Source: Candidatus Kaiserbacteria bacterium (GTDB lineage Bacteria > Patescibacteriota > Minisyncoccia > Phycocordibacterales > Phycocordibacteraceae). Taken from it: a stretch of DNA of 39,759 nucleotides. The notes beneath the pieces are model-generated. The model was not told the origin of the DNA, made no database searches, and saw only the letters and a list, made by a program, of their open reading frames with translations. The position numbers were made by a program, and so were the translations under genes. Below, one piece after another: positions 7,357 through 27,411 of this stretch. The DNA is taken from assembly GCA_011322135.1 (NCBI GenBank), contig DRNP01000044.1, positions 1 to 39,759 on the forward strand. Direction: 5' to 3'. Numbering within the stretch: the first letter of the stretch is position 1; each line of letters begins with the position of its first letter.

Positions 7357-9363
<2,007 letters not shown>

Positions 9364-11840: not shown

Positions 11841-12574
11841 CCTGTGAAAAAAGCAATTAAAAAACCGGTGGCAAGAAAAGGGGCGAAAGGCACCTCAATA
11901 CCTCTTCTATGCGCAACAGGCGTTCGTAACAATATAATTATACCGACAAATGCCCCGACCCAAAACGAATACAAAAAACCTGAAAAAGCAAGTGACCCAG
12001 CGAGAAGAGCTAGTCCAAAAGTAACAGGTGCGTCACCCAGACCCATCGCTCTTCCGCGAGAAGCAAAATGAATTGCAACAAGCATCAATGCTAGACCTGC
12101 CGACACAAGAAACACTACACCGAAATCGGATATATTCTGAGCAGAGATGCCTGCGTAAATAATACTCGAAAGAACAAACAAAATGGAAAACTCGCCCGGA
12201 ATAATTGTGTGTAACAAGTCATACGCAACAATAAGTGCCAGCACGGAAAGTGCTACCAAAAATACGGCGAGCGAAAGTGTAAGACCGAGTTTTAAGTACG
12301 AAAGAACAAAAAGCGTACCAAGTACCGTTTCAGTAATCGTTGAGCGTGCAGAAACTCTAGACCCACACTGTTTACACCGCCCACGTAAGAAAACCCACGA
12401 CGCGATTGGAACAAGCTCTGTGACAGAGAGCTCATTGGAGCAAGAATCGCAATGAGACCTACCGGAAAGCCATGATTCTCCCGTATCCCATCTGTCTACG
12501 ACAACCCCGAGGAAACTTGCGATAATAGCTCCAAGTGCAAAAAATATTACAGCAAACACCGTTACAAATTCCAT
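11813..12574 (-). CDS. pilD: prepilin peptidase (A24 family)
   Basis: Polytopic membrane protein with an N-terminal CDSC...CKQCG zinc motif, located in the pilus cluster. Confidence 0.85.
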   Translation of the reverse strand: MEFVTVFAVIFFALGAIIASFLGVVVDRWDTGESWLSGRSHCDSCSNELSVTELVPIASWVFLRGRCKQCGSRVSARSTITETVLGTLFVLSYLKLGLTLSLAVFLVALSVLALIVAYDLLHTIIPGEFSILFVLSSIIYAGISAQNISDFGVVFLVSAGLALMLVAIHFASRGRAMGLGDAPVTFGLALLAGSLAFSGFLYSFWVGAFVGIIILLRTPVAHRRGIEVPFAPFLATGFLIAFFTGWNIFMYIV

Positions 12575-13451: not shown

Positions 13452-14657
13452 CTAAAAAGCTCCTGCCAAATTATAAATCGGAATGAGAACGGAAGCTAAA
13501 AGAGTTCCAACTCCAAGACCGAGAAGCACAATCATAAGAGGCTCTATAAGGTCGACGAGTGTCTCAACAGCAGTCGTAACTTCACGCGCATAAAATTTTG
13601 AAAGTGTCGACAAAATACTGCTCAAATCTCCAGCCTCCTCTCCCACCTTAATCATCGCCACCATAATGCCCGGAATTTCACTATATCGAGCGAGTGCATC
13701 CGATATGGATGAACCGCCCTGTACCGCACTTTCTACTTGTTTCAATATGTCTTCATATACAGCACTGTCAACAACTGTACTGGTTACATGAATCATCTCT
13801 ACAACAGGAACACCTGATATGAGCATTGTTGCAAAATTATCCGAAATACGAGAAAGATACAACTTTTGATATAAGTTACCAACATATGGAACAGAGAGTT
13901 TCATTTTATCAAAGAAGTATCGTCCTTCTCCTGTTTTTAATTCTTGCCAAGAGACAAATGAACCTATAAGAATTGCGATTACCAAGAAAAAGCCGTAGTG
14001 TACAAGAAAATTTGAAACCCCGATGACGATCTTTGTATATAGAGGTATCTGTTGACCTGAGTCAACAAGAATCGCACTGATGCGTGGAATAACAAGTGTA
14101 AGCATGAGCCCCATAACGGTAAAGAAAGTTGCAATAACAAACGCAGGATAAATAAGCGCGTTCCCTGCTTTGCTCATTACTGCATATGTTCTGTCCAGAT
14201 AGTCTGCAAGATATCCAAAAGTATCCGACAAATGCCCTGACTCTTCACCGGACTTGACCATATTCACATAAAAATTACTAAATACTTTTGGATGTCGAGA
14301 AAGTGATTTCGATATCGGACTTCCTCCCTGCAGGTCATCTGCAACCTGTGTTAACACTCCGGAAAGCGTCACATTATCAACAGCACTTGCCAGTAAACGA
14401 AAAACACGAAGTGCGGGAACTTGTGCGCTAAAAAGCGTGGCGATTTGCCGTGACAAAATAACAACTTCCTTGTTTGAAACATGATTTAAAAATGGGATTT
14501 GCATTGAAAGCAGAGGCTTTTTGCCTACAGGTTCAATGGCTGAGATTATCAAACCTCGTCGTTGCAGTGTTGAAACGGCAACATCTCTGGAAAGGGCTTC
14601 TATTGAACCCTGCCGTTCATGTCCTTCTCTATCAAGTGCGTGATATGAAAAAAGCAT
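13452..14657 (-). CDS. pilC: type IV pilus platform protein (GspF/PilC family)
   Basis: 401 aa with a duplicated T2SS-F domain and three TM blocks. Confidence 0.88.
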   Translation of the reverse strand: MLFSYHALDREGHERQGSIEALSRDVAVSTLQRRGLIISAIEPVGKKPLLSMQIPFLNHVSNKEVVILSRQIATLFSAQVPALRVFRLLASAVDNVTLSGVLTQVADDLQGGSPISKSLSRHPKVFSNFYVNMVKSGEESGHLSDTFGYLADYLDRTYAVMSKAGNALIYPAFVIATFFTVMGLMLTLVIPRISAILVDSGQQIPLYTKIVIGVSNFLVHYGFFLVIAILIGSFVSWQELKTGEGRYFFDKMKLSVPYVGNLYQKLYLSRISDNFATMLISGVPVVEMIHVTSTVVDSAVYEDILKQVESAVQGGSSISDALARYSEIPGIMVAMIKVGEEAGDLSSILSTLSKFYAREVTTAVETLVDLIEPLMIVLLGLGVGTLLASVLIPIYNLAGAF

Positions 14658-14663
14658 AATATA

Positions 14664-15728
14664 TTATAAGTAACGTTCAAATACTTTTGGATTAAACGAG
14701 TGCTCATACGCGTGCTCCACCGTAATCTCTCCGCGCTGAACAAGCTCTGAAAGATACCTATCCATATCAATCATTCCTTCTTGTGACGTTGTTTGAATTA
14801 CTGTCGATATTTCGTGCGTTCTTTCTTCTCGAATAAGATTCGCAACCGCGCTGTTATTTATGAGTAACTCATACGCAGGTATTAGCCCTCCGGAAATACG
14901 TGGTACCAAACGTTGCGAGAAGATTCCGGCAAGTGAATTCGCAAGCTGTACTCTTACCTGCCCTTGCTGGCTTGCAGGAAACATGTCTATTATGCGGTCA
15001 ATAGTTTGCGCCGCATTGTTTGTGTGAAGCGTTGATAAAACCAAATGACCCGTCTCAGCAGCTGTAACCGCAGATGAAATCGTTTCGAGGTCACGCATCT
15101 CACCAACCATAATCACATTTACATCTTCTCGAAACGCGTTTTGAAGCGCCGAATGAAAATCCGGAGAATCAACATGAACTTCGCGTTGATGGATAAGCGA
15201 CTTTTTTTGATCAAAAAGGTACTCAATCGGATCTTCGATAGTAACAATGTGTTCTGATCTTGAAGTATTTATACTTTCAATAAGTGCCGCCAACGTGGTT
15301 GATTTCCCCTGACCAACAGGACCGACAACAAGAAAAAACCCTTGCGCACGCTCTGCAAACACTTCGAGAACTGATGGTAAATGTAATTTATCAAACGAGC
15401 GTATCTCGTGCGGAATAAGACGCATCGCTATTGCGACACCGCCCTGCACAACATATCCATTTGTACGAAAACGTGCACCGTCTTTGTGTGCATATGCAAA
15501 ATCAACCGACTGCTTTTCACGAAAAATATTCCACCTCTCTTCAGGAATAATACTTTTTAGCATCTTTTCCGTATCTTCTGCTGTAAGCACAGGGCGTTGC
15601 GTTAGCGAAACCAGCGAGCCTGCAATACGTATACTTGGATGCTGTCCAGATGTTATATGCAAATCGGAACCGCCTTCTGCAACAACTGTGTCAAGTAACT
15701 CGAGAATTTGTGGAGTAGGTGTGCTCAT
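14664..15728 (-). CDS. pilT: twitching-motility retraction ATPase
   Basis: Walker A GPVGQGKST, an Asp box and a His box (LVLSTLHTNNA), about 350 aa, PilT-type. Confidence 0.88.
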   Translation of the reverse strand: MSTPTPQILELLDTVVAEGGSDLHITSGQHPSIRIAGSLVSLTQRPVLTAEDTEKMLKSIIPEERWNIFREKQSVDFAYAHKDGARFRTNGYVVQGGVAIAMRLIPHEIRSFDKLHLPSVLEVFAERAQGFFLVVGPVGQGKSTTLAALIESINTSRSEHIVTIEDPIEYLFDQKKSLIHQREVHVDSPDFHSALQNAFREDVNVIMVGEMRDLETISSAVTAAETGHLVLSTLHTNNAAQTIDRIIDMFPASQQGQVRVQLANSLAGIFSQRLVPRISGGLIPAYELLINNSAVANLIREERTHEISTVIQTTSQEGMIDMDRYLSELVQRGEITVEHAYEHSFNPKVFERYL

Positions 15729-16114
15729 TTTTGTTTTTGTTCAATAATATTTATGGTCTTTTCAAGCACCTCTGAAGGAACCGCTGAAGCTTTTATAATG
15801 TATCCATCTACATTGAATTTTTGTGCACGTTCAATATCGCTATCTTGTCCTTGATTTGAAAGTACAATAATCTTTGCTCCTTCTGCAAGTTTTTCTTTTC
15901 TAATTTCCTCTAGAATTTGGAAACCATCCATACCAGGCATTACAATATCAAGCAATACAGCATCAACTTTCGGCTTTTTGCGTAATGCGGAAATTATTTC
16001 CTTCCCGGAATTGAATGATTCCACAGTATGTCCTGCTTTCTGAAACTTCAGCACATACATTCCAAGTAAAAAATGATCGTCGTCAACTAGAAATATTTGA
16101 TAGTTAGGTGTCAT
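15725..16114 (-). CDS. stand-alone receiver-domain response regulator
   Basis: DD pair (LVDDD), phospho-acceptor LLDIVMPGMDG, and a conserved K in YIIKA. No output domain. Confidence 0.85.
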   Translation of the reverse strand: MTPNYQIFLVDDDHFLLGMYVLKFQKAGHTVESFNSGKEIISALRKKPKVDAVLLDIVMPGMDGFQILEEIRKEKLAEGAKIIVLSNQGQDSDIERAQKFNVDGYIIKASAVPSEVLEKTINIIEQKQK

Positions 16115-16128
16115 AAAATGTAAATATA

Positions 16129-17904
16129 TTAGTTGTCTTCTTTGTCTTCAGGGAATACTGACCCGCCCAGCGTATTTACTTCTTCAAACGGAATCTTACC
16201 TGCGAGTGCTTTAATAATAGCATCTTCGCGCATTGTAAACATTCCTTTTCCACGTGCAGACGTGTATATTTCTTCCACAATAGGATTTGTAAGGACAATA
16301 TGTTCCAAATCCTTGTCCATGCGCATAACCTCAAAAGCTCCCGTACGTCCGCTTGTTCCGTTCGGGCAGGTTGTTGTCGATGATGCATGATAAAAGTGCT
16401 CAAATGTCGGTATATCTTTACGGAACTCTGCAGGAACATCAACGAACTCCTTTTCCAGCAAGGCTCTGAGGCTGTCACTTATCGGAAACGGCTTGCCGGC
16501 ATCAGGACACAATGTGCGAACAAGTCTCTGCCCGATTACAGCAAGTAATGTAGGAGCTATAAGATATGGATCGACACCCATGTCAATGAGACGCGGGATA
16601 GCATCTGCAGCGGTATTTGTGTGAAGTGTTGACAATACAAGATGACCTGTAAGCGCAGATTGCACGGCAAGTTGTGCCGTTTCCTTATCACGAATCTCAC
16701 CAACCATAATAACGTCCGGGTCTTGTCGCAAAATGGAACGAAGTCCGCTTGCAAATGTGTATCCGATTTCCGGTCTCACTTGCGATTGCGAAACACCTTG
16801 TATATTGTATTCCACAGGATCTTCCAAAGATACTACGTTTTTTGTTTCTCTATCCAACTCCGACAATATTGCGAAAAGTGTTGTGGATTTACCGGAACCG
16901 GTTGGCCCGGTAATAAGTACAATCCCATACGGATGTCGTACAGCTTGACGCACAATTTCCAACTTTTCTCCTTCAAGACCGAGTGACTCGAGTGTTTCCT
17001 TTGACTTCGCCTGATCCAAAATACGCATCACAACTTTCTCGCCGTAGTTTGTCGGGAAAGTTGATACACGAAAGTCAATACGTCGCCCGCTTACGTTTGC
17101 TGAAAAACGACCATCTTGCGGTTTCCGTTTTTCATCAAGTCGCATTTGCGAAAGAATTTTAATACGTGCTATAAGCGCGGAGTGCACTTTTGCAGGTAAC
17201 TCCAATGATGTATGAAGTTCCCCATCCATACGAAACCGTACACGTAGTTTTTCAGGTGACGGTTCTATATGCACATCTGAAGCATCTCCTTCTACCGCAT
17301 ATCGTAAAATTGTAGCAACAATTTTTGTTACCGGCGCATCGGCTTTTATATCTTCTTTTCCGTTTCTAACTTGTTTTTTTGCACGTGCCGAAGCATTTGC
17401 GTTAAGAACATTTTTTGCTACAGAAGCATTTGCCTCGGTTTCTGATTCAAACTCGGAAAGAGCCTCTCCAATTTCTCCTGTTAAGTTTTGGTACAGGTCA
17501 AGGACTTTTTTGAAATCCATCGATGAAATTAGGAATAATTGATATGGCATTCCTATTTTTGTAGAGATAAACTGCAGAGCATCGAGCGCCTCAATATCGT
17601 CCGGATTTGTTATACCGACTTCAAGAGACCCATCTACAACTGCAATCGGAACAAAATGATAATGTCGCGCTGAATCTTCGGGAATATATTTAAGTACTGA
17701 AGAAGGTACTTGTGTGTCGTTCAATATTCTATAAGGAAGATTGAAATAATTTGCAACTGTAGATAACGTTGTCTCAATCGGTATTCCATACTTTACAAGA
17801 GCTTGCTCTATGGAAACGCCCGGGATACGCGCTTCTTTTTCTATAATAGCTCTGTCTTCAGCCTTTACAAATCCTTGTTGTATAAGTACGTCAAGTATAT
17901 TCAT
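16129..17904 (-). CDS. pilB: type IV pilus assembly ATPase (GspE/PilB family)
   Basis: Walker A GPTGSGKST, an N-terminal GSPII-like domain, and His box LVLSTLHTNTA. Confidence 0.9.
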   Translation of the reverse strand: MNILDVLIQQGFVKAEDRAIIEKEARIPGVSIEQALVKYGIPIETTLSTVANYFNLPYRILNDTQVPSSVLKYIPEDSARHYHFVPIAVVDGSLEVGITNPDDIEALDALQFISTKIGMPYQLFLISSMDFKKVLDLYQNLTGEIGEALSEFESETEANASVAKNVLNANASARAKKQVRNGKEDIKADAPVTKIVATILRYAVEGDASDVHIEPSPEKLRVRFRMDGELHTSLELPAKVHSALIARIKILSQMRLDEKRKPQDGRFSANVSGRRIDFRVSTFPTNYGEKVVMRILDQAKSKETLESLGLEGEKLEIVRQAVRHPYGIVLITGPTGSGKSTTLFAILSELDRETKNVVSLEDPVEYNIQGVSQSQVRPEIGYTFASGLRSILRQDPDVIMVGEIRDKETAQLAVQSALTGHLVLSTLHTNTAADAIPRLIDMGVDPYLIAPTLLAVIGQRLVRTLCPDAGKPFPISDSLRALLEKEFVDVPAEFRKDIPTFEHFYHASSTTTCPNGTSGRTGAFEVMRMDKDLEHIVLTNPIVEEIYTSARGKGMFTMREDAIIKALAGKIPFEEVNTLGGSVFPEDKEDN

Positions 17905-17932
17905 GTCGTATTATATAAAATAGCCAAACAAA

Positions 17933-18220
17933 TTAAAATGGAGCAAAAGGGTCTGTGCGACCGGCAGGCACTGCTGTAAATTGTGCCGTAATCGTATGAA
18001 GAGATTTAAAACGAGCATCAGAAAAAATACCCGTATCAAAAGAAAGGGGCGATAGTTGCTCCGCGAGACCCTTAAATCGCTTTGTGCTACTTGCCGTATT
18101 AGCCGAAGTAACCGGCAATTCTGAAACACTCGAGCCACTGAAATAAAAATATCCGGCTCCGAGCAAGACTATTCCGAGTGCTACTGCGACTGATATTGTG
18201 ATGAGTCTGTCTTTTTTCAT
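17933..18220 (-). CDS. small single-TM pilus-cluster protein (PilP-like position)
   Basis: Trimmed to ATG 18220 (MKKDRLITISVAVALGIVLLGAG). The longer track ORF would overlap pilO. Confidence 0.45.
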   Translation of the reverse strand: MKKDRLITISVAVALGIVLLGAGYFYFSGSSVSELPVTSANTASSTKRFKGLAEQLSPLSFDTGIFSDARFKSLHTITAQFTAVPAGRTDPFAPF

Positions 18221-18227
18221 ACGTTTT

Positions 18228-18809
18228 TTAAATTGAGTTATATGGCAACCAGTATGTTTGCAATGTCGCTTGATACGAATACACACCTTTGATTTGCGCT
18301 CCGTTTGAATTCGAATTTCTAACAGAAAGTTGTGTAACATCAATAATGCGCAGGCTGTGCTCGACACTATTTAAAAATTGACGGAATGCCCGGTACGACC
18401 CTGCTCCGGAGATATTAATATCAACTATACGATACGGATTTCCTCCGGAGACAGTACTTTTTACGTTTCCTGATTTGTATTGTGTCGGTATAGACACATT
18501 AAAGTTTGTTATCAAAAAACCTGAGCGTGCTGCAAGAGATGACAAGTCAAATACCAACTGAACAGTGTTTGTTGATTTTGGCAATGCCATTAAAGCGCTT
18601 TTTAATTCTGCGGAAGGTATTTGTTGACGCTCCGCCTCCAAACTTGCTTCTCGTTTTGTATATTGTTTTGCAGCCGAAAGCGCTGTATTCCCATTTGCAA
18701 TCTGATGCTTTAAAGACACCACTGTGTTGTTATACGCAGGTTGCACATACCCAAAATACAAACCGAGTGAGATAAATATCGCTAGAATTGGTCCTAAGTT
18801 CCCTTTCAT
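18228..18809 (-). CDS. pilO: PilO-like pilus assembly protein
   Basis: N-terminal TM segment, a coiled-coil region, and its position after the pilM/pilN-like genes. Confidence 0.55.
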   Translation of the reverse strand: MKGNLGPILAIFISLGLYFGYVQPAYNNTVVSLKHQIANGNTALSAAKQYTKREASLEAERQQIPSAELKSALMALPKSTNTVQLVFDLSSLAARSGFLITNFNVSIPTQYKSGNVKSTVSGGNPYRIVDINISGAGSYRAFRQFLNSVEHSLRIIDVTQLSVRNSNSNGAQIKGVYSYQATLQTYWLPYNSI

Positions 18810-19504
18810 GGTGTTTGTGGTGTTAACGATTGATACTTACCAGCGGTTGTAGTAGCGGATTGAACTGCATTTACTGCATCTTTTGTGCCGGAAGAAGCAA
18901 CAACCGCACTAAAGTTTTTAGCAACAGACGGAAGCACCACTGCATTCACTGTAAAGTTTACAGAATTGTCCTTGTTAACAGATATGCCTGAAAATTGTAC
19001 TCCGCTAAAAGACCCGCTACCATTTAATGATTTTGCTTCTGCTGAAAGAGCATTAAAATCACGTGCCCTTCCATTTCCTGTGAGCACAATGCTTTTATTA
19101 CCGTCTACTCCATCTTTCAACCCTATTTTTAGTGAGCTAAACGATACATCGTGTACTGTCGTTGACTCCAACACATTAAAAAATCTCGATAACGTTATGT
19201 GGTTATCTAACAATGTATGCACTGATGAAAGCTGGTCTCGTAAATGTATAAATTGTTTTATAGTACCGGCATTGATTGTTTTTTCTGCAGCGACAATTTT
19301 TGCCTGTTGAGCTACAACTTGTCCGGATAACACGCGCTCGTACACAAACATACCGATACTTGCAAACACAACAAGTGCGAGAGCACCATACACTAGAAAG
19401 GCAAAAGCTCCGTGTAAGTCAGCACGAGCATGTTTTGGTACTGACGACGTCGGGAGAGTCTCGTGCGGTACAAACGAAGTAGGTATCTGCGAAGGAACAT
19501 TCAT
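18806..19504 (-). CDS. pilN: PilN-like pilus assembly protein
   Basis: Single TM segment (AFAFLVYGALALVVFASIGMFVY) followed by a periplasmic domain. Lies directly after pilM. Confidence 0.5.
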   Translation of the reverse strand: MNVPSQIPTSFVPHETLPTSSVPKHARADLHGAFAFLVYGALALVVFASIGMFVYERVLSGQVVAQQAKIVAAEKTINAGTIKQFIHLRDQLSSVHTLLDNHITLSRFFNVLESTTVHDVSFSSLKIGLKDGVDGNKSIVLTGNGRARDFNALSAEAKSLNGSGSFSGVQFSGISVNKDNSVNFTVNAVVLPSVAKNFSAVVASSGTKDAVNAVQSATTTAGKYQSLTPQTP

Positions 19505-19584
19505 AATTTATATAAATATAGTATACGGGCTAGTCACAAGTACTCCTATAAAGTTATACACATAATAGTGTAAGTTATTTTATT

Positions 19585-20685
19585 TCAATTAAATTCCTCG
19601 AGCTTACGCAATGCAATACCAACAGCAACTGAAAATTCCGGACCGATTTCTTTCAAAACCGGACGTATGAACTCTGGAGCTTGCGTTTTTGCAAACGGGT
19701 CCGCAACACGTGTTTCTACTGCAAAAAAGTTTTGAGCGTATTCTCCGAGACCTTTGGTAACTCCTCCGCCTCCTGTTAGAACAATGGCGGTTACCGAACG
19801 TTTTTTTTCATGTTCAAACTGCAACATGACGCGTTTTGCTTCTGCGAAAATGTTTGAAAATGTCGTTTCGGTGGCAATTCGATGCTCGCCCTGCTCGGCT
19901 CCTGTAATTCCTTCTTCTTTTTTGGATTGTTCAGCGTGAGCGATATCTATCCCGGAAGACGCCGAAATGGCACGCGTTACATCTTGTCCGCCATGCGGTA
20001 TTGCATGCGAAGTAGCTACGACACCGCGCTCAACTATATACACTTTTGTCGATGCTGATCCGATATCGATAATCATAATCGGCTTAACTGTTTCATCTAC
20101 AACAGAACGTATTGTACTAAATATTTCTATCTCAAAAAAAGTAGCTGCCAGGTTTGCTTTTTTAACTACAGTATCAAGTAACTGTATCTCATCATTATGT
20201 ACGGCAACAAGTAGTACATTTATATTTTTAAGAGGAGTCTTTGTTTCGCTTTCTGAAGAGCTCGGAACATCTGGCAATACAAACCAATCTAAATGTACCT
20301 CGGAAATCGGAACCGGAATATATTTACGAGCTTCGAGTTCGATAACGGTTTTTTGCTCTTCTGGATTATCTCTGCGCGGTAATTCAGTAAATGTTAAAAG
20401 CGAACGTGATGCGGGGATTGAAACTCCGCAATCGTTTGTGGTTACATTTGCCTCATGAAGAAGATCTATAAGAGTTGTGGCGATGGTGTCTGCAGGTAAA
20501 TTTGTTGCCTGACCAATCTCGACTTTTCCGTACGGACCAAGTGAAAGCTCGCCGTACGTTTCCAAAACAATCGCACCGTTTTTTCTGCTCAGCTGAACGA
20601 CCTTTAATGAAGACGAGCCAATATCCACTCCAAGAGCGCTTCGAGTTTTTTCTGTTTTACCAAATATTTTTGCAAGAAAATTCAT
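19585..20685 (-). CDS. pilM: type IV pilus assembly protein PilM (actin-like ATPase)
   Basis: LGVDIGSSSLKVV and IIDIGSASTKV phosphate motifs, about 366 aa. Confidence 0.85.
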   Translation of the reverse strand: MNFLAKIFGKTEKTRSALGVDIGSSSLKVVQLSRKNGAIVLETYGELSLGPYGKVEIGQATNLPADTIATTLIDLLHEANVTTNDCGVSIPASRSLLTFTELPRRDNPEEQKTVIELEARKYIPVPISEVHLDWFVLPDVPSSSESETKTPLKNINVLLVAVHNDEIQLLDTVVKKANLAATFFEIEIFSTIRSVVDETVKPIMIIDIGSASTKVYIVERGVVATSHAIPHGGQDVTRAISASSGIDIAHAEQSKKEEGITGAEQGEHRIATETTFSNIFAEAKRVMLQFEHEKKRSVTAIVLTGGGGVTKGLGEYAQNFFAVETRVADPFAKTQAPEFIRPVLKEIGPEFSVAVGIALRKLEEFN

Positions 20686-22663: not shown

Positions 22664-22734
22664 CTCGTCGTCACGTGCTCGCTCCGCTCGCACGGCTCTG
22701 CGACGACTCGGTTCGAATCCCACCGTCTCGCGCA
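22664..22734 (+). repeat. module half B1: 3' half of the 159-nt tRNA-Ser-derived module, with a variant hairpin
   Basis: Its last 35 nt are identical to B3. It contains ggttcgaatcccaccgtctc, an inverted copy of the last 20 nt before the final CG of the tRNA-Ser at 27327-27411. Confidence 0.8.
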
Positions 22735-22784
22735 AAAACATAATCGCACGACGCATTCGCGTCGCGCTCTTTGTTTTGCGGAGA
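22700..22784 (+). repeat. left 85-bp exact direct repeat (partner at 27248-27332)
   Basis: Compared by hand, base for base. Both copies end in gcggaga, the reverse complement of the tRNA-Ser 3' terminus. Confidence 0.9.
22746..22777 (+). terminator. intrinsic terminator after B1
   Basis: cgacgc-attc-gcgtcg hairpin followed by ctctttgtttt. Confidence 0.6.
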
Positions 22785-22876
22785 ACAAGTTATGGGCTTC
22801 GGTCACTCTCGCGGGTTTTTCTTTCACGCTTTGCGCTCATAAAAACCTCGCTCCATTGACCGCCACTCGTCGTCAC
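22778..22876 (+). repeat. module half A1: 5' half of the 159-nt module
   Basis: 99/99 identical to A3 (27124-27222) and 97/99 identical to A2. Confidence 0.85.
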
Positions 22877-22898
22877 GTGCTGGCTTGATAGTTTCGTG

Positions 22899-22907
22899 TG
22901 GTATAAT
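22899..22907 (+). promoter_or_regulatory. extended -10 promoter (TGgTATAAT) for the RT leader
   Basis: tgg at 22899-22901 plus TATAAT at 22902-22907. TTGATA lies 12 nt upstream, so it is not a canonical -35. Confidence 0.45.
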
Positions 22908-22913
22908 ACCAGA

Positions 22914-23425
22914 TACAGCACCTTGAAACAGAGTGAAGTAAGCTTCAACGAATCGTCCTGTTACAGAGCATTTGCTCAACATCCCTTGTCTCATCGGTGC
23001 ATGGGGATTTTGTTTGTTCAGGCGCGCCGTTCATTCGACGTGACTGCTAACACTAGCCTGCTCATTGAGCTCGTCTAAGTTTTAGCGGTATCCTGACAGG
23101 AGACATCAGTCATTAAGATTGACATATCCATCCGGCTACAAGCGGTAATCCGTGAGGACTGCTACTCGTCCTGGTGTAACGCTACTCAGGACGAGTAGTT
23201 GTGCCTTGCGAATTACATAGTTGTAGCCGTTACTAGAATGGTCTCACTGTTTAATTTTGCAACGAGTATGAACGACTTAAAAAATCGAACGACGTTTACT
23301 TCAAGCGTTACACACAGTGAGACGGCAATAAGTCAAATTCTTGAAGAATTTTCTCAAGATGGTGTGCAAAGCATTCACCGTTCAACTCTCTCGGGAGCTG
23401 ATCAAGGTGATACTGCGCGCCATTT
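22914..23425 (+). ncRNA. candidate structured non-coding leader / RT-associated ncRNA
   Basis: About 510 nt between the promoter and the RT gene, with only one weak small ORF. It contains a 97-nt three-helix hairpin (23133-23229) and a 10-bp long-range stem (23241-23250 with 23314-23323). Confidence 0.5.
23133..23229 (+). other. 97-nt compound hairpin (msd-like)
   Basis: Outer stem cggctacaa/ttgtagccg (9 bp), middle stem gtaat/attac (5 bp), and inner perfect 12-bp stem ctactcgtcctg/caggacgagtag with a 13-nt loop. Confidence 0.6.
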
Positions 23426-23447
23426 TTGGCGCATAGCCGTCTCTTAG
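23268..23447 (+). CDS. possible small ORF (59 aa) overlapping the RT frame
   Basis: ATG 23268 has only a weak SD. The stop TAG at 23445-23447 lies 5 nt before RT ATG 23453. The RT frame is already open from 23411. Confidence 0.25.
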   Translation: MNDLKNRTTFTSSVTHSETAISQILEEFSQDGVQSIHRSTLSGADQGDTARHFWRIAVS

Positions 23448-23452
23448 CGTAT

Positions 23453-24460
23453 ATGCGCAAACACTACACCCACAAACATCCAAAGTTAAACCTACGCACA
23501 GAAAAAGATCTGCTGCATTTTTTAAATGCCCGGAAGACCGTAAAACTCAAAGGCAAAACTGTCAGGAGGCAAGTAGCAACTAAGGATCTGTCATATCTCG
23601 ATAAAAACTCCCGCAGTGACTGGAACGATCACCCTTCAGAATCTAAGCCGGAAAATGGAAAATACGTTCGCTATATCAAACAGGGCTCGACACTAGATAT
23701 TTCAAACAGAAGGCTAAACGCCGCACTCAAACAAACTTTAGACAAGAAGGTGCCAAGCATATTCTACGGGTCAGTCTCGAAAAAAAGTCACATACAAGCC
23801 TCAAGGGCGCTGTGCAATGGGAAAAGCACCGTCATCATATCGCTGGACGTCACTAGATTCTTTGAGTCAGTGTCGCTGGCGCGAATCTTTAGGTTTTTTC
23901 GTAAAGCGGGATGTTCTACCGAGATAGCAGATATACTTGTCGAGCTCACCTGTGTACCTCTCGGTGCGAAAGAACATCCTCAGTCCGGCTTCTCAATCGC
24001 GCGCGGTTTCCCCACCTCACCGCGCCTAGCGCTGTGGGCAACATTCGAGATATTCGTGAAGTTAAATCGTATTTTACAAAAGCGTTATGGGCACTTGTCG
24101 CCAAAACTCGTGGTATTTGTGGATGATGTCGGTATTTCACTAAAGAACTCCACCCCAGAAGAGATAGAAGAAATAAAAGCACTTTCGTTTGAAACAATAG
24201 AGAGTGACAAAAATGGTATTCATTTAGTGGTACACAAGGAAGCTCCAAAGTTAAAAGTCCAGTCTATAGACCAAAATGCAGAACATCTCGGTCTTGTGAT
24301 AGGAAAAAATAGTTTGTCGCCAAGCTTTGAAACACGGCACAAAATAGGTTATGTGAAAGCTCAGCTAAGTAAGCAGACGTTATCGACTGAAAATCGGGAC
24401 AGAGCCCGAAAAAACAAACGTGGTTTAATGAACTACAAACGTTCGGTGTCCAATGGCTAG
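23453..24460 (+). CDS. RT-only reverse transcriptase (retron/Abi/UG-like); alternative TTG start at 23426
   Basis: RT1-2 GKYVRYIKQGSTLDISNRRLNAALKQTL; RT3 VIISLDVTRFFESV; RT4 ARGFPTSPRLA; RT5 VVFVDDVG (nt 24116-24127); RT7 HLGLVIG. No additional domain. Confidence 0.8.
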   Translation: MRKHYTHKHPKLNLRTEKDLLHFLNARKTVKLKGKTVRRQVATKDLSYLDKNSRSDWNDHPSESKPENGKYVRYIKQGSTLDISNRRLNAALKQTLDKKVPSIFYGSVSKKSHIQASRALCNGKSTVIISLDVTRFFESVSLARIFRFFRKAGCSTEIADILVELTCVPLGAKEHPQSGFSIARGFPTSPRLALWATFEIFVKLNRILQKRYGHLSPKLVVFVDDVGISLKNSTPEEIEEIKALSFETIESDKNGIHLVVHKEAPKLKVQSIDQNAEHLGLVIGKNSLSPSFETRHKIGYVKAQLSKQTLSTENRDRARKNKRGLMNYKRSVSNG

Positions 24461-24775
24461 CTAACGAGAATCTTTCTGATTTTTTACTATAAATATAGAG
24501 ACAAGAAAAATTAAAGTCGCGACCACATCAAAAAACTGCCACGTTCCTTTTTGTAGGTAGAATGGCGCTATTGGGTTGAACAGCACGGCAGTCAAACCAA
24601 ATGCTACTGTCCAGCCAATCCGCTCACTCTCATAGGTTTGATACGCACGATACAAGCCTATGCCACATACGACCCATCGCAGTAATTGAAAATATGAATA
24701 AGGCCAACTCAGTAACGCTCCAAATAAAAACAAAGTGGCAATAAGCGCAGACCAATTTTCCTTAAGACTTTTCAT
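24461..24775 (-). CDS. small polytopic membrane protein
   Basis: 104 aa with 3-4 hydrophobic segments and an AVLFNPIAPFYL..W..FDV motif. Its stop abuts the RT stop. Confidence 0.6.
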   Translation of the reverse strand: MKSLKENWSALIATLFLFGALLSWPYSYFQLLRWVVCGIGLYRAYQTYESERIGWTVAFGLTAVLFNPIAPFYLQKGTWQFFDVVATLIFLVSIFIVKNQKDSR

Positions 24776-24800
24776 GTTTTTTGCTCTCGACGCACAGCCC

Positions 24801-25433
24801 TTATGACTTTCTCATATCGACATCCTCTTCAATCTCCGGCAGAACACCAAAATCGTGAATCAATTTTTCTTCTGAGACGTCTTTTGAGCTAAGAGAATTG
24901 TCATAATCTTCTTTTAAGATTTGATAGCTTCCATACAACTTTTTAAATTCCTCTCTCGGGATGTGCCCATTAAACGAGCTACCATCTTTAAAAACAATAT
25001 CGTCGTGCATACTCTTAAGCTCCAGGTTCTCTTGATAGATATCCCAGCTTGGATAAACAGTGTTTATAAAAAGCCCTGCCCCTACGGTTTGAGCAGCTTC
25101 AAACATTTTTGCGTCCTTCTCTTTCTTAAGGAAGTCAAGAAAAATATAGAAGGCGCACTTTATATAATTCTTTGGATACGGTAGTAACGATCTAGGGACA
25201 AAACCTCGATACATCGCATGTATTTCGTCGATATTCATTTTGTTGAAATCGTTGAACTCCAGAAATACTTTTCGGGCAAGCGTATAGTTTGGCTCGTCAG
25301 CAGTAATTACACCCTGATCTTTTAGGCGGTTGTAAGTTTCAACCAATACCTCGACGGACACATCTTTCAAACTATCCTCTTTAGTCTCCTCGTACTTGAG
25401 GAAGTCGTGAATCTTTTTAAGTAACGCTTTCAT
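24801..25433 (-). CDS. hypothetical protein
   Basis: 210-aa acidic soluble ORF. No motif recognised. Confidence 0.55.
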   Translation of the reverse strand: MKALLKKIHDFLKYEETKEDSLKDVSVEVLVETYNRLKDQGVITADEPNYTLARKVFLEFNDFNKMNIDEIHAMYRGFVPRSLLPYPKNYIKCAFYIFLDFLKKEKDAKMFEAAQTVGAGLFINTVYPSWDIYQENLELKSMHDDIVFKDGSSFNGHIPREEFKKLYGSYQILKEDYDNSLSSKDVSEEKLIHDFGVLPEIEEDVDMRKS

Positions 25434-25440
25434 GGTTTAT

Positions 25441-25620
25441 TCAACGAATATAATCAAGAGCTTAGGCGATTTTGGAGAGAGTGTCAATCGTTGGATTTTG
25501 GTTCGTGCCATTTTCTATCTTTACAATGGTATTGAGAGACAAATCAGCAAGGCGGGCGACTCTCTCAAGAGAGTAACCTTTTTCGGCACGTATCTTTTTT
25601 TAATTATTCGCTATGCTCAT
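25441..25620 (-). pseudogene. XRE-family HTH regulator interrupted by two in-frame TAA codons
   Basis: Minus-strand translation: MSIANN*KKIRAEKGYSLERVARLADLSLNTIVKIENGTNQNPTIDTLSKIA*ALDYIR*. This is an otherwise intact HTH_3-type sequence with no frameshift. Confidence 0.7.
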
Positions 25621-25787
25621 GGTGAGATTATATAATTTAGTATATAGATTACAGTATAAAGTATGAAAGCTTTATATCTAAATTATAGCTGTTTATTACG
25701 ATTTTGCACTGAATGTGAGATGCATGGAGATAAATCCTTACAAATTCTATAAAAAGTAGTGTACGAAATGTGCGCTACTTTCATTTT

Positions 25788-25946
25788 GCGGAGAACAAGT
25801 TGTGGGCTTCGGTCACTCTCGCGGGTTTTTCTTTCACGCTTTGCGTTCATAAAAACCTCGCTCCATTGACCGCCACTCGTCGTCACTTGTTCGCTTTGCT
25901 CACAAGGCTTCGCGACGACTCGGTTCGAATTCCACCGTCTCGCGCA
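25788..25946 (+). repeat. module copy 2 (A2-B2), 159 nt
   Basis: It has 4 substitutions relative to copy 3. One of them (gccttg to gctttg) turns a C-G pair of the inner hairpin into a U-G pair. Confidence 0.85.
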
Positions 25947-26127
25947 AAAGCACACTCTTAAACGTTCTTCTTTTATTGTTTTTATATATATGCCAACACC
26001 AACACATTACCGTGTCGGGCAAAAACCGCCATATGTGTGTATACATTACCAATTCTACTTGACTTATAGCTACCGGTCGATATACTGGAAATATATCTAT
26101 GAAAAGGCACTTCGTACGGGCGCGTCC

Positions 26128-26631
26128 CTACGCGGTGCTTTTTCTTTTTGCTATCTTTCCCTCCAGTGTATCCATATAGACCATTTTGTCTCTTGCTGAT
26201 TTACGTAAAAGTGTAGAGCAACGATTCTTTTGTGGACTCAATACAGCTTGAAGCTTCTGATTATCGTAGAGATAGCGTGCTAATGAATAAAAGTCACCGT
26301 CACTTGTTATCAAGATTGCTTTATCATAGTTTTGATAATCAATCATCGTCTGCAAAACCATATCCGCATCGACATTACCTTTTACACCGTCCTTACCATT
26401 TGGTAAGACTGGTTTGAATTTAAGAATGAAACCTGCTTGTTGTAATTCATCATATATATCATTATGTTCAGGTATAAAACCAATGAACAAATATGCTTTT
26501 GTGACACGATACTTATTTTTTAAATATATTCGAAACCGTTCCCAATCAATGAACCAGCCCAAATCATACTTAGTGCCTTGGTAGACATTTTGACTATCTA
26601 TAAATGCGTAATTGCTAACTTTCTTTGGCAT
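26128..26631 (-). CDS. NYN/LabA-like (PIN-fold) ribonuclease-domain protein
   Basis: AFIDSQN, GNVDADMV and ILITSDGDF motifs. Confidence 0.75.
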   Translation of the reverse strand: MPKKVSNYAFIDSQNVYQGTKYDLGWFIDWERFRIYLKNKYRVTKAYLFIGFIPEHNDIYDELQQAGFILKFKPVLPNGKDGVKGNVDADMVLQTMIDYQNYDKAILITSDGDFYSLARYLYDNQKLQAVLSPQKNRCSTLLRKSARDKMVYMDTLEGKIAKRKSTA

Positions 26632-26643
26632 AAGTATATCTAC

Positions 26644-26811
26644 TTAAAAAAAAATACATTTCACAAACGGCTTCGGCTTTTCTCTCACCAATCGAGCAGC
26701 ATCCTCAAACAATCTTGTTTTGTCGGCATTATGAAAAACATGACGTGCGTATATTTTATTGATATTCAACTCATGTACAAGTTTTGTGATTGTTTGCTCG
26801 GTAGTCATCAT
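26644..26811 (-). CDS. possible small ORF (55 aa) upstream of the NYN gene
   Basis: MMTTEQTITKLVHELNINKIYARHVF... It starts 1 nt after the stop of the decayed XRE frame and ends 12 nt before the NYN ATG. Confidence 0.3.
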   Translation of the reverse strand: MMTTEQTITKLVHELNINKIYARHVFHNADKTRLFEDAARLVREKPKPFVKCIFF

Positions 26812-26812
26812 T

Positions 26813-26996
26813 TTATTTTAACAGTTCCGTGGTGCTAACTCCAAACACCTTAGCCAGTTTGAAACTTGTCGGCTCCTGCCCGGATCACTTCACCAAAGAT
26901 ATGGCTGCAAGGATTTTTATCTTTGAGAAGTCGGGTGGAGCGAGACAACGAGGTGTGCGAGACTCCAATGCGTAAACGCTCTGCTTGTGCGAGTTG
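26813..26996 (-). pseudogene. decayed XRE-type HTH regulator
   Basis: Minus-strand frame reads ISLVK*SGQEPTSFKLAKVFGVSTTELLK*. An upstream QLAQAERLRIGVSHTSLSRS segment lies in another frame. Confidence 0.45.
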
Positions 26997-27083
26997 CTAA
27001 TCGCAGAATAATTGTTGTTCAAAAAAAGTTCGAGCGAAATGCACAGTCTCACCGCAAAATGTAATTTCCTCCCAGAGAATGCA

Positions 27084-27123
27084 AGAGCACGACGCGCCTT
27101 CGGCGCGTCGTGCTCTTTGTTTT
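27084..27123 (+). terminator. strong hairpin plus T-run preceding module copy 3
   Basis: agagcacgacgcgcc-ttc-ggcgcgtcgtgctct followed by ttgtttt. It is preceded by a degenerate B-like remnant (about 27029-27067). Confidence 0.6.
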
Positions 27124-27282
27124 GCGGAGAACAAGTTATGGGCTTCGGTCACTCTCGCGGGTTTTTCTTTCACGCTTTGCGCTCATAAAAACCTCGCTCC
27201 ATTGACCGCCACTCGTCGTCACTTGTTCGCCTTGCTCACAAGGCTTCGCGACGACTCGGTTCGAATCCCACCGTCTCGCGCA
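27124..27282 (+). repeat. module copy 3 (A3-B3), 159 nt, intact
   Basis: It starts GCGGAGA and ends TCTCGCGCA, a possible end-pairing. It has internal stems GAACAAG/CTTGTTC, GGGTTTTT/AAAAACCT, GTCGTC/GACGAC and GCCTTG/CAAGGC. Confidence 0.85.
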
Positions 27283-27293
27283 AAAACATAATC

Positions 27294-27325
27294 GCACGAC
27301 GCATTCGCGTCGCGCTCTTTGTTTT
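27294..27325. terminator. bidirectional terminator between module 3 and tRNA-Ser
   Basis: Same hairpin as at 22746-22777, with T-runs on both strands. Confidence 0.6.
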
Positions 27326-27326
27326 G

Positions 27327-27411
27327 CGGAGACGGTGGGATTCGAACCCACGAGGGTGTTAACCCTACTTCGTTAGCAGTGAAGCGCTTTCGACCACTCA
27401 GCCACGTCTCC
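27327..27411 (-). tRNA. tRNA-Ser (anticodon GCT), class II with long variable arm, no encoded CCA
   Basis: Manual fold: GGAGACG acceptor, anticodon loop CTGCTAA, variable arm TAGGGTTAACACCCTCG, and T-arm GTGGG-TTCGAAT-CCCAC. Confidence 0.9.

Follow-up and report, generated by a model that had tools for sequence, protein, structure and literature searches.

A 202-nt tRNA-adjacent repeat unit with a covarying three-way-junction core, probably a gene-less integrative element of Kaiserbacteria-like CPR bacteria

The islet and its repeat units

The window analyzed here is the whole 39,759-nt stretch of contig DRNP01000044.1 (assembly GCA_011322135.1, Candidatus Kaiserbacteria bacterium). Within it, a 5-kb islet located between two MFS transporter genes harbors a 159-nt module in several copies, two cargo segments and, at the junction with the repeat array, a tRNA-Ser(GCT) gene. 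The features of the islet are as follows.

22664..22886: permuted module copy 1, comprising 1.1 units of a 202-nt repeat, at the distal end of the array
22664-22734: copy 1, hairpin HB and tRNA-like arm
22735-22777: copy 1, spacer
22758..22784, also 27104-27130 and 27306-27332: 27-nt direct repeat CGCGTCGYGCTCTTTGTTTTGCGGAGA
22778-22865: copy 1, arm and hairpin HA
22866-22886: copy 1, first 21 nt of the next HB
22887..25771: cargo 1, with a type VI retron (plus strand), DUF6804 and a 210-aa ORF, bracketed by module copies
22899-22907, plus strand: retron promoter, extended -10 TGgTATAAT, conserved in a four-way alignment
~22915-23240, plus strand: retron ncRNA, ~330 nt, conserved
23241-23447, plus strand: 68-aa ORF in the HTH position, no Pfam match
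23453-24460, plus strand: RT
24461-24775, minus strand: DUF6804
24801-25433, minus strand: 210-aa ORF, no assigned function
25772..25957: module copy 2 (25788-25946), flanked left and right by incomplete pieces of spacer and separating cargo 1 from cargo 2
25958..27028: cargo 2, with an NYN-domain gene, a 55-aa ORF and an HTH remnant, bracketed by module copies
26128-26631, minus strand: NYN-domain (nuclease-like) gene
26644-26811, minus strand: 55-aa ORF
27029..27067: doubtful remnant, an older decayed tRNA-like arm with the left-hand portion of a spacer
27083..27123: spacer sp', directly upstream of copy 3, a terminator hairpin (16-bp stem, then TTTGTTTT) that is older and has diverged
27124..27282: module copy 3; in plus-strand order, antisense tRNA-end arm (degenerate), HA, HB and inverted tRNA copy
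27283..27325: spacer sp, a bidirectional intrinsic terminator hairpin between module copy 3 and the tRNA, completing the 202-nt unit
27326..27411, minus strand: tRNA-Ser(GCT), whose 3' end is the junction with the repeat array

The modules at 25788-25946 and 27124-27282, which the first-pass annotation had described as intact copies, differ at 4 of 159 positions (blastn E 8e-79). Together with a 43-nt bidirectional terminator, the module forms a 202-nt repeat unit. The third copy, previously reported as split into B1 (22664-22734) and A1 (from 22778), proved to be a circular permutation of this unit in which the 43-nt terminator spacer separates the two parts. A1 extends to ~22886, and CTCGTCGTCAC occurs at both 22664 and 22866, giving a 202-nt period in the window. 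The terminators already noted after copies 1 and 3 were confirmed and act in both directions. The fourth, decayed copy proposed at ~27029-27067 fared less well, with 24 of 1000 shuffles reaching its local alignment score. The spacer beside the tRNA is homologous to the spacers of three related loci (L006, L016 and L022), and the distal array ends of the window and L006 fall at the same module position within ~6 nt.

The module region has a GC content of 56%, versus 42% for the genome. Two independent assemblies, ERZ940665 and SRR7787808, reproduce the sequence and have contigs broken inside the modules; the module is therefore not an assembly artefact. A search for the window locus in other strains returned only identical contigs, broken at the repeats, and the P0020 contigs end short of the tRNA region. 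A scan of GTDB genomes with the neighboring MFS protein yielded one short Kaiserbacteria contig that does not carry the locus.

Foreign DNA interrupts the array twice. The cargo junctions lie at four positions of the unit: in the HB loop (22886), in the spacer (25772 and 25957) and in the T-loop (~27030). Because these junctions are not uniform, precise cassette exchange is not supported, and capture of the cargo by homologous or illegitimate recombination at the repeats appears more likely. In cargo 2, inspection by eye points to an apparent frameshifted remnant of an XRE-like helix-turn-helix gene on the minus strand at ~26811-27000 (peptide ...LAKVFGVSTTELL). Just left of the islet, at 13452-20685, lies a type IV pilus/competence-like cluster (PilM-like, T2SSE, T2SSF), which is relevant only to a speculative idea of single-stranded DNA uptake.

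tRNA genes and related loci

The 20-nt segment GGTTCGAATCCCACCGTCTC, found exactly at 22710 and 27258 and with one mismatch at 25922, is the reverse complement of the tRNA-Ser(GCT) 3' end, in agreement with the earlier statement that the module ends with the tRNA-Ser 3' segment in the orientation opposite to the real gene. This inverted 3' end is present in every full copy (19-20/20 positions), and the tRNA-Ser(GCT) 3' end is the template for the tRNA-like arms of the module. In reverse complement, the direct repeat CGCGTCGYGCTCTTTGTTTTGCGGAGA corresponds to the final 7 nt of the tRNA and half of the terminator. Since arm similarity continues through the trailer, the arm mirrors more sequence than that of the tRNA alone. 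At seven other tRNA genes in the fetched DNA, the downstream inverted match reached 10-13/22, versus 17-20/22 at module loci. A cloverleaf or tRNA-like domain was not found in the module: ARAGORN detected only the three true tRNAs, Rfam returned nothing, and the 5' strand of the T-stem is missing.

A metagenome pattern scan returned one true relative, L006, and three chance matches in GC-rich coding DNA. In L006, 1.5 units abut the 3' end of tRNA-Ser(GGA), and the GCT-type arm is kept. A protein search with translated module frames led, through a spurious ORF on another module, to L016, where the sequence past tRNA-Arg(CCT) comprises a diverged homologous terminator, an inverted arm resembling tRNA-Arg (18/22) and a core that shares 94.5% identity with that of the window; the same sample also yielded a contig identical to the window. 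Searching with a protein that flanks L016 gave syntenic loci in other species. In L022, from another species, the unit after tRNA-Arg(CCT) has a core only 68% identical. In L024, synteny is kept and the unit is absent, but a 19-nt duplicate of the tRNA end lies 35 nt downstream and, judged from its sequence, looks like a scar. The tRNA-Ser(GCT) of L011, a related Kaiserbacteria contig, has no unit either; L024 and L011 represent species different from the unit-bearing strains. The data searched contained no excised circle and, for the same strain, no truly empty site. Viral contigs had no match to two exact patterns, and BLAST searches of phage and plasmid collections gave none. The known unit loci number five, all within one narrow lineage.

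Several further features of these loci were recorded. The block of tRNA-Arg(CCT) and module is inverted relative to the flanking genes in L016 (4616-4882; compare L022 2277-2579 and L024 11648-11758), and its conserved flanks are glutaredoxin and a 454-aa protein on one side and HSP20 on the other. Directly beyond the distal array end of L006 (9829-10356, minus strand) lies a very AT-rich 175-aa ORF, DUF2726/NERD-type nuclease-like by eye, which may be a captured defense-type gene. In L011, a partial tRNA-Ser 5' end at 7622-7654, GGAGACGTGGCTGAGTGG, is located 165 nt upstream of the real tRNA-Ser and is identical to the 5' end of the window's tRNA.

The unit adjoins a tRNA 3' end at four loci: Ser-GCT in the window, Ser-GGA in L006, and Arg-CCT in both L016 and L022. 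Read in the tRNA direction, the order is tRNA end (T), terminator, inverted T, HB, HA, a direct and often degenerate T, and the next terminator. The 202-nt period is common to the window (22664/22866), L006 and L022. In L022 it appears as a perfect 46-nt direct repeat (2332-2377 and 2534-2579, spacing exactly 202 nt) that comprises the tRNA from T-loop to 3' end plus 28 nt and is, as far as sequence can tell, the signature of an integrated element. Direct repeats containing the tRNA 3' part thus flank inserted DNA at three loci, being perfect over 46 nt in L022, 27 nt long and present three times in the window, and decayed in L016. The inverted arm matches the neighboring tRNA at 20/22 positions in the window, 18/22 in L016 and, in L022, 15/15 over the T-loop and T-stem; at the opposite side of the core, the six bases past a shared CGA read TTCCTA (6/6) for Arg and AGCCCA (5/6) for Ser.

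At every locus, an imperfect 80-90-nt palindrome spans the stretch from the tRNA end across the terminator to the inverted copy, with the terminator loop at its center (27258-27348 in the window; 2327-2416 in L022). Such an arrangement might arise by local rearrangement, with template switching or fold-back at the terminator hairpin generating direct-inverted-direct copies of the tRNA end and no mobile element involved. Quasi-palindrome correction, which is established in template-switch mutagenesis, could keep the arms matched. Nevertheless, three different tRNA loci have cores 91-98% identical, and a fourth has one that is still recognizable at 68%, indicating that the core moved between loci. 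It also lacks similarity to tRNA bodies, and an origin of the core from a tRNA body was rejected for the same reason. We therefore regard purely local rearrangement as very improbable.

Searches for a recombinase gave no candidate at the unit loci. Pfam detected none among the islet ORFs and ten larger window ORFs, the latter being housekeeping genes; none was listed beside the L016 and L022 units in precomputed gene tables, and none was recognized by eye among the neighbors of L006. A large serine recombinase was present only in the retron relatives L008 and L009, which suggests that the retron elsewhere travels on recombinase-bearing islands. In these Pacebacteria loci, Resolvase, Recombinase and Zn_ribbon_recom domains (L008 14038-15399; L009 14037-15235) lie near the retron, as does an N6/N4 DNA methyltransferase.

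As an alternative, the first-pass annotation had considered the modules to be att-site scars of the islet, that is, att arms of decayed tRNA-integrating islands spread by local recombination and devoid of function or mobility of their own. This came close to the mark. Direct repeats of the tRNA end flank units and cassettes, no recombinase accompanies them, the cargo junctions are irregular, and tRNA-Ser(GCT) is also an islet site in L011; comparable partial-tRNA debris is found in tycheposon islands (bioRxiv 10.1101/2020.12.28.424599). The explanation is nonetheless incomplete. A gene-less 202-nt unit occurs at three tRNA genes and in a species whose flanking protein is only 59% identical, its repeat in L022 is still perfect over 46 nt, and the L016 and L022 units carry no cargo. 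Moreover, its stems evolve by compensatory change and its core is far better conserved than its spacer (see below). Because length, fold and core sequence are kept across loci and species, the unit is an entity of its own rather than islet debris, and we consider passive scars improbable.

The distribution of the module also bears on its relation to the neighboring RT, for which PADLOC gives retron type VI as the best match (7.6e-26); positions 22899-24460 (plus strand) constitute a complete type VI retron in a CPR genome. The first-pass annotation had likened the module to a retron-type ncRNA or a tRNA-like primer or handle. A role as ncRNA, template or primer of the adjacent RT would fit the position of copy 1, which ends ~13 nt before the retron promoter, and the size of the module, which is like that of msr-msd RNAs; type VI retron ncRNAs (Retron-Vpa2, Retron-Sen3) are likewise structured non-coding elements beside such an RT. 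However, a conserved promoter and ncRNA of the retron itself lie at 22899-23240 and are common to four related loci; the ncRNA has a nearly invariant 13-bp stem (CUACUCGUCCUGG/UCAGGACGAGUAG) within a predicted 16-pair hairpin. In the published layout of type VI retrons, the hybrid RNA lies directly upstream of the HTH-RT genes, and the segment of the window that truly corresponds to it is 22899-23240 rather than the module. At six loci with RTs 64-68% identical, the nucleotide alignment with the window starts at 22899-22917, just past the module end at 22886. BLAST and a core covariance model found the module in 0 of 8 RT-relative loci (L008-L015), whereas L006, L016 and L022 carry it beside tRNA genes in the absence of a nearby RT. 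The expected co-occurrence with the RT family is thus absent, and the distribution refutes the module as the RT's RNA; we give this reading practically no credence. In L011, the homologous retron also lies downstream of tRNA-Ser(GCT), which is the islet site there, and is bracketed by a different GC-rich repeat of ~230 nt (8963-9196 and 11982-12214, inverted, 90% and 84% complementary), making it a second retron cassette framed by structured repeats.

That the module encodes a small protein is scarcely credible either. One plus-strand frame is open across the module, and of the four differences that separate copies 2 and 3, three leave its amino acids unchanged. Yet a start codon is not conserved, successive units are out of frame with one another owing to the 202-nt period, the changes in copy 1 and L016 are mostly non-synonymous, and L022 has indels in its stems. 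Comparison of the translated frames with 5.8 billion proteins returned a single spurious ORF, located on another module.

Fold of the module core and its conservation

The core of the module is a three-way junction of ~110-116 nt with two hairpins, closed by inverted and direct tRNA-derived arms. In copy 3, its parts are as follows.

27124-27147: degenerate antisense tRNA-end arm
27139..27147: 5' arm of the closing stem, TGGGCTTCG, pairing with 27262-27270, CGAATCCCA; both arms are derived from the tRNA T-arm
27148..27206: hairpin HA, with GTCA/TGAC, GCGGGTTTTT/AAAAACC-CGC, the tip CGC/GCG and the invariant block CACTCTCGCGGGTTTTTCTTTC
27215..27255: hairpin HB, with outer stem GTCGTC/GACGAC, inner stem CTTGT/ACAAG, an 11-nt loop and the unpaired, conserved GCTTCGC
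27258-27277: inverted (sense-on-plus) copy of the tRNA from T-loop to 3' end

An RNAalifold consensus predicted 7 of the 9 closing-stem pairs without prior input. This stem shows compensatory changes relative to the Arg-type copies, and the difference between Ser-type and Arg-type tracks the tRNA. In HB, two inner-stem pairs are changed on both sides in copy 1, and four inner-stem and two outer-stem pairs in L022. With L022 included, 13 pairs are changed on both sides in an alignment that was fitted to the structure model; none of 500 shuffles reached 13, and slid controls gave 0-1. An unfitted alignment retains four pairs changed on both sides, and the RNAalifold consensus finds the same helices. 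Despite the fitted alignment, the changes in L022 are visible by eye: GTCGTC/GACGAC is replaced by GTCACAC/GTGTGAC, CTTGT/ACAAG by CCGAC/GTCGG, and CGC/GCG by GTCC/GGAC. Single-sequence folding of the L022 copy alone gave the same three-way junction on both strands. Base pairs are thus kept by compensatory substitutions, as in a selected structured RNA or a folded single strand.

These comparisons also refine the helices suggested by the first-pass annotation. GGGTTTTT/AAAAACC and GTCGTC/GACGAC hold, whereas GAACAAG/CTTGTTC and GCCTTG/CAAGGC are broken in copy 1, L016 and L022 and give way to the covarying 5-bp stem CTTGT/ACAAG. The pairing of the module ends, GCGGAGA/TCTC-GC, exists in Ser-type copies but not in L016, and GCGGAGA lies inside the 27-nt direct repeat with the tRNA end. 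The view that the module belongs to no named RNA family was borne out, as Rfam searches at gathering and permissive thresholds returned nothing for it (noise only, E <= 10).

The core is conserved beyond its pairing. Between the window and L016 it is 94.5% identical, compared with 66.7% for the spacer (Fisher p = 1e-5), and its unpaired blocks are invariant among copies only 68% identical. The invariant blocks, together with low folding energies of the module, strong covariation, an arm that varies with the neighboring tRNA on a constant scaffold, and a terminator downstream, would suit a structured small RNA gene. Such an RNA could act as a decoy resembling a tRNA, as an anti-tRNA regulator or as a guide composed of a scaffold and a variable segment, the arm of which mimics or base-pairs with the 3' half of the neighboring tRNA or its gene; the direct repeats would then be incidental. 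Several observations oppose this. No promoter-like site was found beside copy 2 or copy 3, and the module has terminators on either side, on both strands. A strand preference in G-U versus A-C substitutions was looked for, and none was detected. The guide would have no clean boundary, as tRNA similarity continues via the trailer into the terminator, and both the repeat of L022 and the period of 202 nt would be expected of an integrated element. Neither an Rfam match nor a conserved partner protein gene nearby was found. On balance, a small RNA gene seems to us unlikely, although it deserves more weight than the readings discussed above. The missing promoter, the two-way terminators and the lack of strand bias lead us to lean towards the fold acting at the DNA level rather than as RNA.

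RNA-guided transposons (IS110 bridge RNA, TnpB omega RNA and CAST homing crRNA) were weighed and set aside, as no such protein is encoded nearby and there is no guide boundary. An integron attC site was rejected: positions 27085-27335 contain no RYYYAAC/GTTRRRY boxes, no IntI is present, and there is no fixed cassette boundary.

The proposed element and known systems

We propose that the unit is probably a miniature integrative element, gene-less and non-autonomous, that belongs to a Kaiserbacteria-like CPR lineage and whose copies bracket the retron and NYN cassettes. The features that support this proposal are the att-type repeats, the strict position at tRNA 3' ends, the constant 202-nt unit, the head-to-tail arrays and the scar-like duplicate in L024. 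The match of the arms to the neighboring tRNA, the covarying fold, a core better conserved than the spacer, the lack of a promoter-like site beside copies 2 and 3 together with the two-way terminators, and the shared position of the distal array ends in the window and L006 count in its favor as well. The unit would integrate exactly at the tRNA 3' end through recombination between its tRNA-like segment and the gene, presumably by a recombinase encoded elsewhere and acting in trans, and would pass through circular excision and integration. Insertion would generate att-type direct repeats and short head-to-tail arrays. The paired tRNA-derived arms would close the core, with the stem copying the duplex of the tRNA gene 3' end, and the folded DNA (or RNA) would be what selection maintains. 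Additional copies in the window may have served as portable recombination sites at which the retron and NYN cassettes were captured, which would explain why modules bracket the cassettes of the islet.

Several points weigh against this element as proposed: no recombinase was found in the scanned window ORFs or beside the L006, L016 and L022 units, neither an excised circle nor an empty site came to light, the cargo junctions vary, the five loci come from a narrow lineage, the highest covariation count comes from a fitted alignment, and a 202-bp double-stranded circle would be strained. In addition, it is normally sequence, and not covarying hairpins, that is conserved in recombinase arm sites; the fold therefore calls for a further explanation, such as a single-stranded DNA site or an RNA. 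We offer, tentatively and as a possibility well short of probable, that the unit carries a copy of its target and works either as a self-folding attachment site or as a guide-like RNA. The closing stem would then imitate the double-stranded tRNA 3' end, the conserved core would recruit the machinery, and a swap of the arm would retarget the unit from tRNA-Ser to tRNA-Arg.

Several known systems resemble the probable integrative element in part. CIMEs (cis-mobilizable elements), which are non-autonomous integrative elements, and their tandem accretion at one att site are reportedly known from the Streptococcus thermophilus ICESt/CIME work. Like them, the unit lies between att-type direct repeats where a conserved gene ends (3'), lacks a recombinase, and forms head-to-tail arrays that hold cargo. 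It differs in being a gene-less 202 nt, in its covarying three-way-junction core, in the extra inverted copy of the target, and in that no helper was identified.

The integron attC and the forked hairpin of CTX-phage attP(+) are folded single-stranded recombination sites. The similarities lie in inverted imperfect arms, a stem that imitates a double-stranded target, a size of ~60-150 nt, and a structure better conserved than its sequence; as with integron sites, the modules separate cassettes. In contrast, the unit has no GTTRRRY/RYYYAAC boxes, no IntI or Xer context and non-uniform junctions, and its core loop is conserved.

MITEs and other small repeats (REP/BIME, Correia, RUP, ERIC) are also short, gene-less, GC-rich relative to the genome, hairpin-rich and present in several copies, with imperfect terminal inverted repeats. 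Here, however, the terminal repeats derive from the target tRNA and follow it, the flanking repeats are 27-46 nt long rather than short duplications, site preference is strict, and no parent IS is known or was found.

Tycheposons are tRNA-adjacent islands with partial tRNA repeats and defense cargo, in which successive integrations displace older ones outward (bioRxiv 10.1101/2020.12.28.424599). The islet shares with tycheposons and other tRNA islands the tRNA-gene site, elements and remnants flanked by partial tRNAs, and defense genes as cargo. Tycheposons have integrases and direct partial tRNAs, whereas the unit described here is gene-less, has no integrase and carries an inverted tRNA fragment.

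CPR bacteria (Patescibacteria) have tiny genomes with few recognizable mobile elements, and how they gain defense genes is poorly understood. The unit would serve as a minimal model for studying site-specific integration and the capture of cassettes, and the covariance model of its core is a practical marker for such islets in CPR metagenomes. The locus also carries a caution, namely that a structured tRNA-like repeat beside an RT need not be the RNA of that RT. If the unit were indeed a self-folding site, it would be the smallest integrative element described and would provide a route for defense cassettes into streamlined CPR genomes, which take up DNA as single strands.
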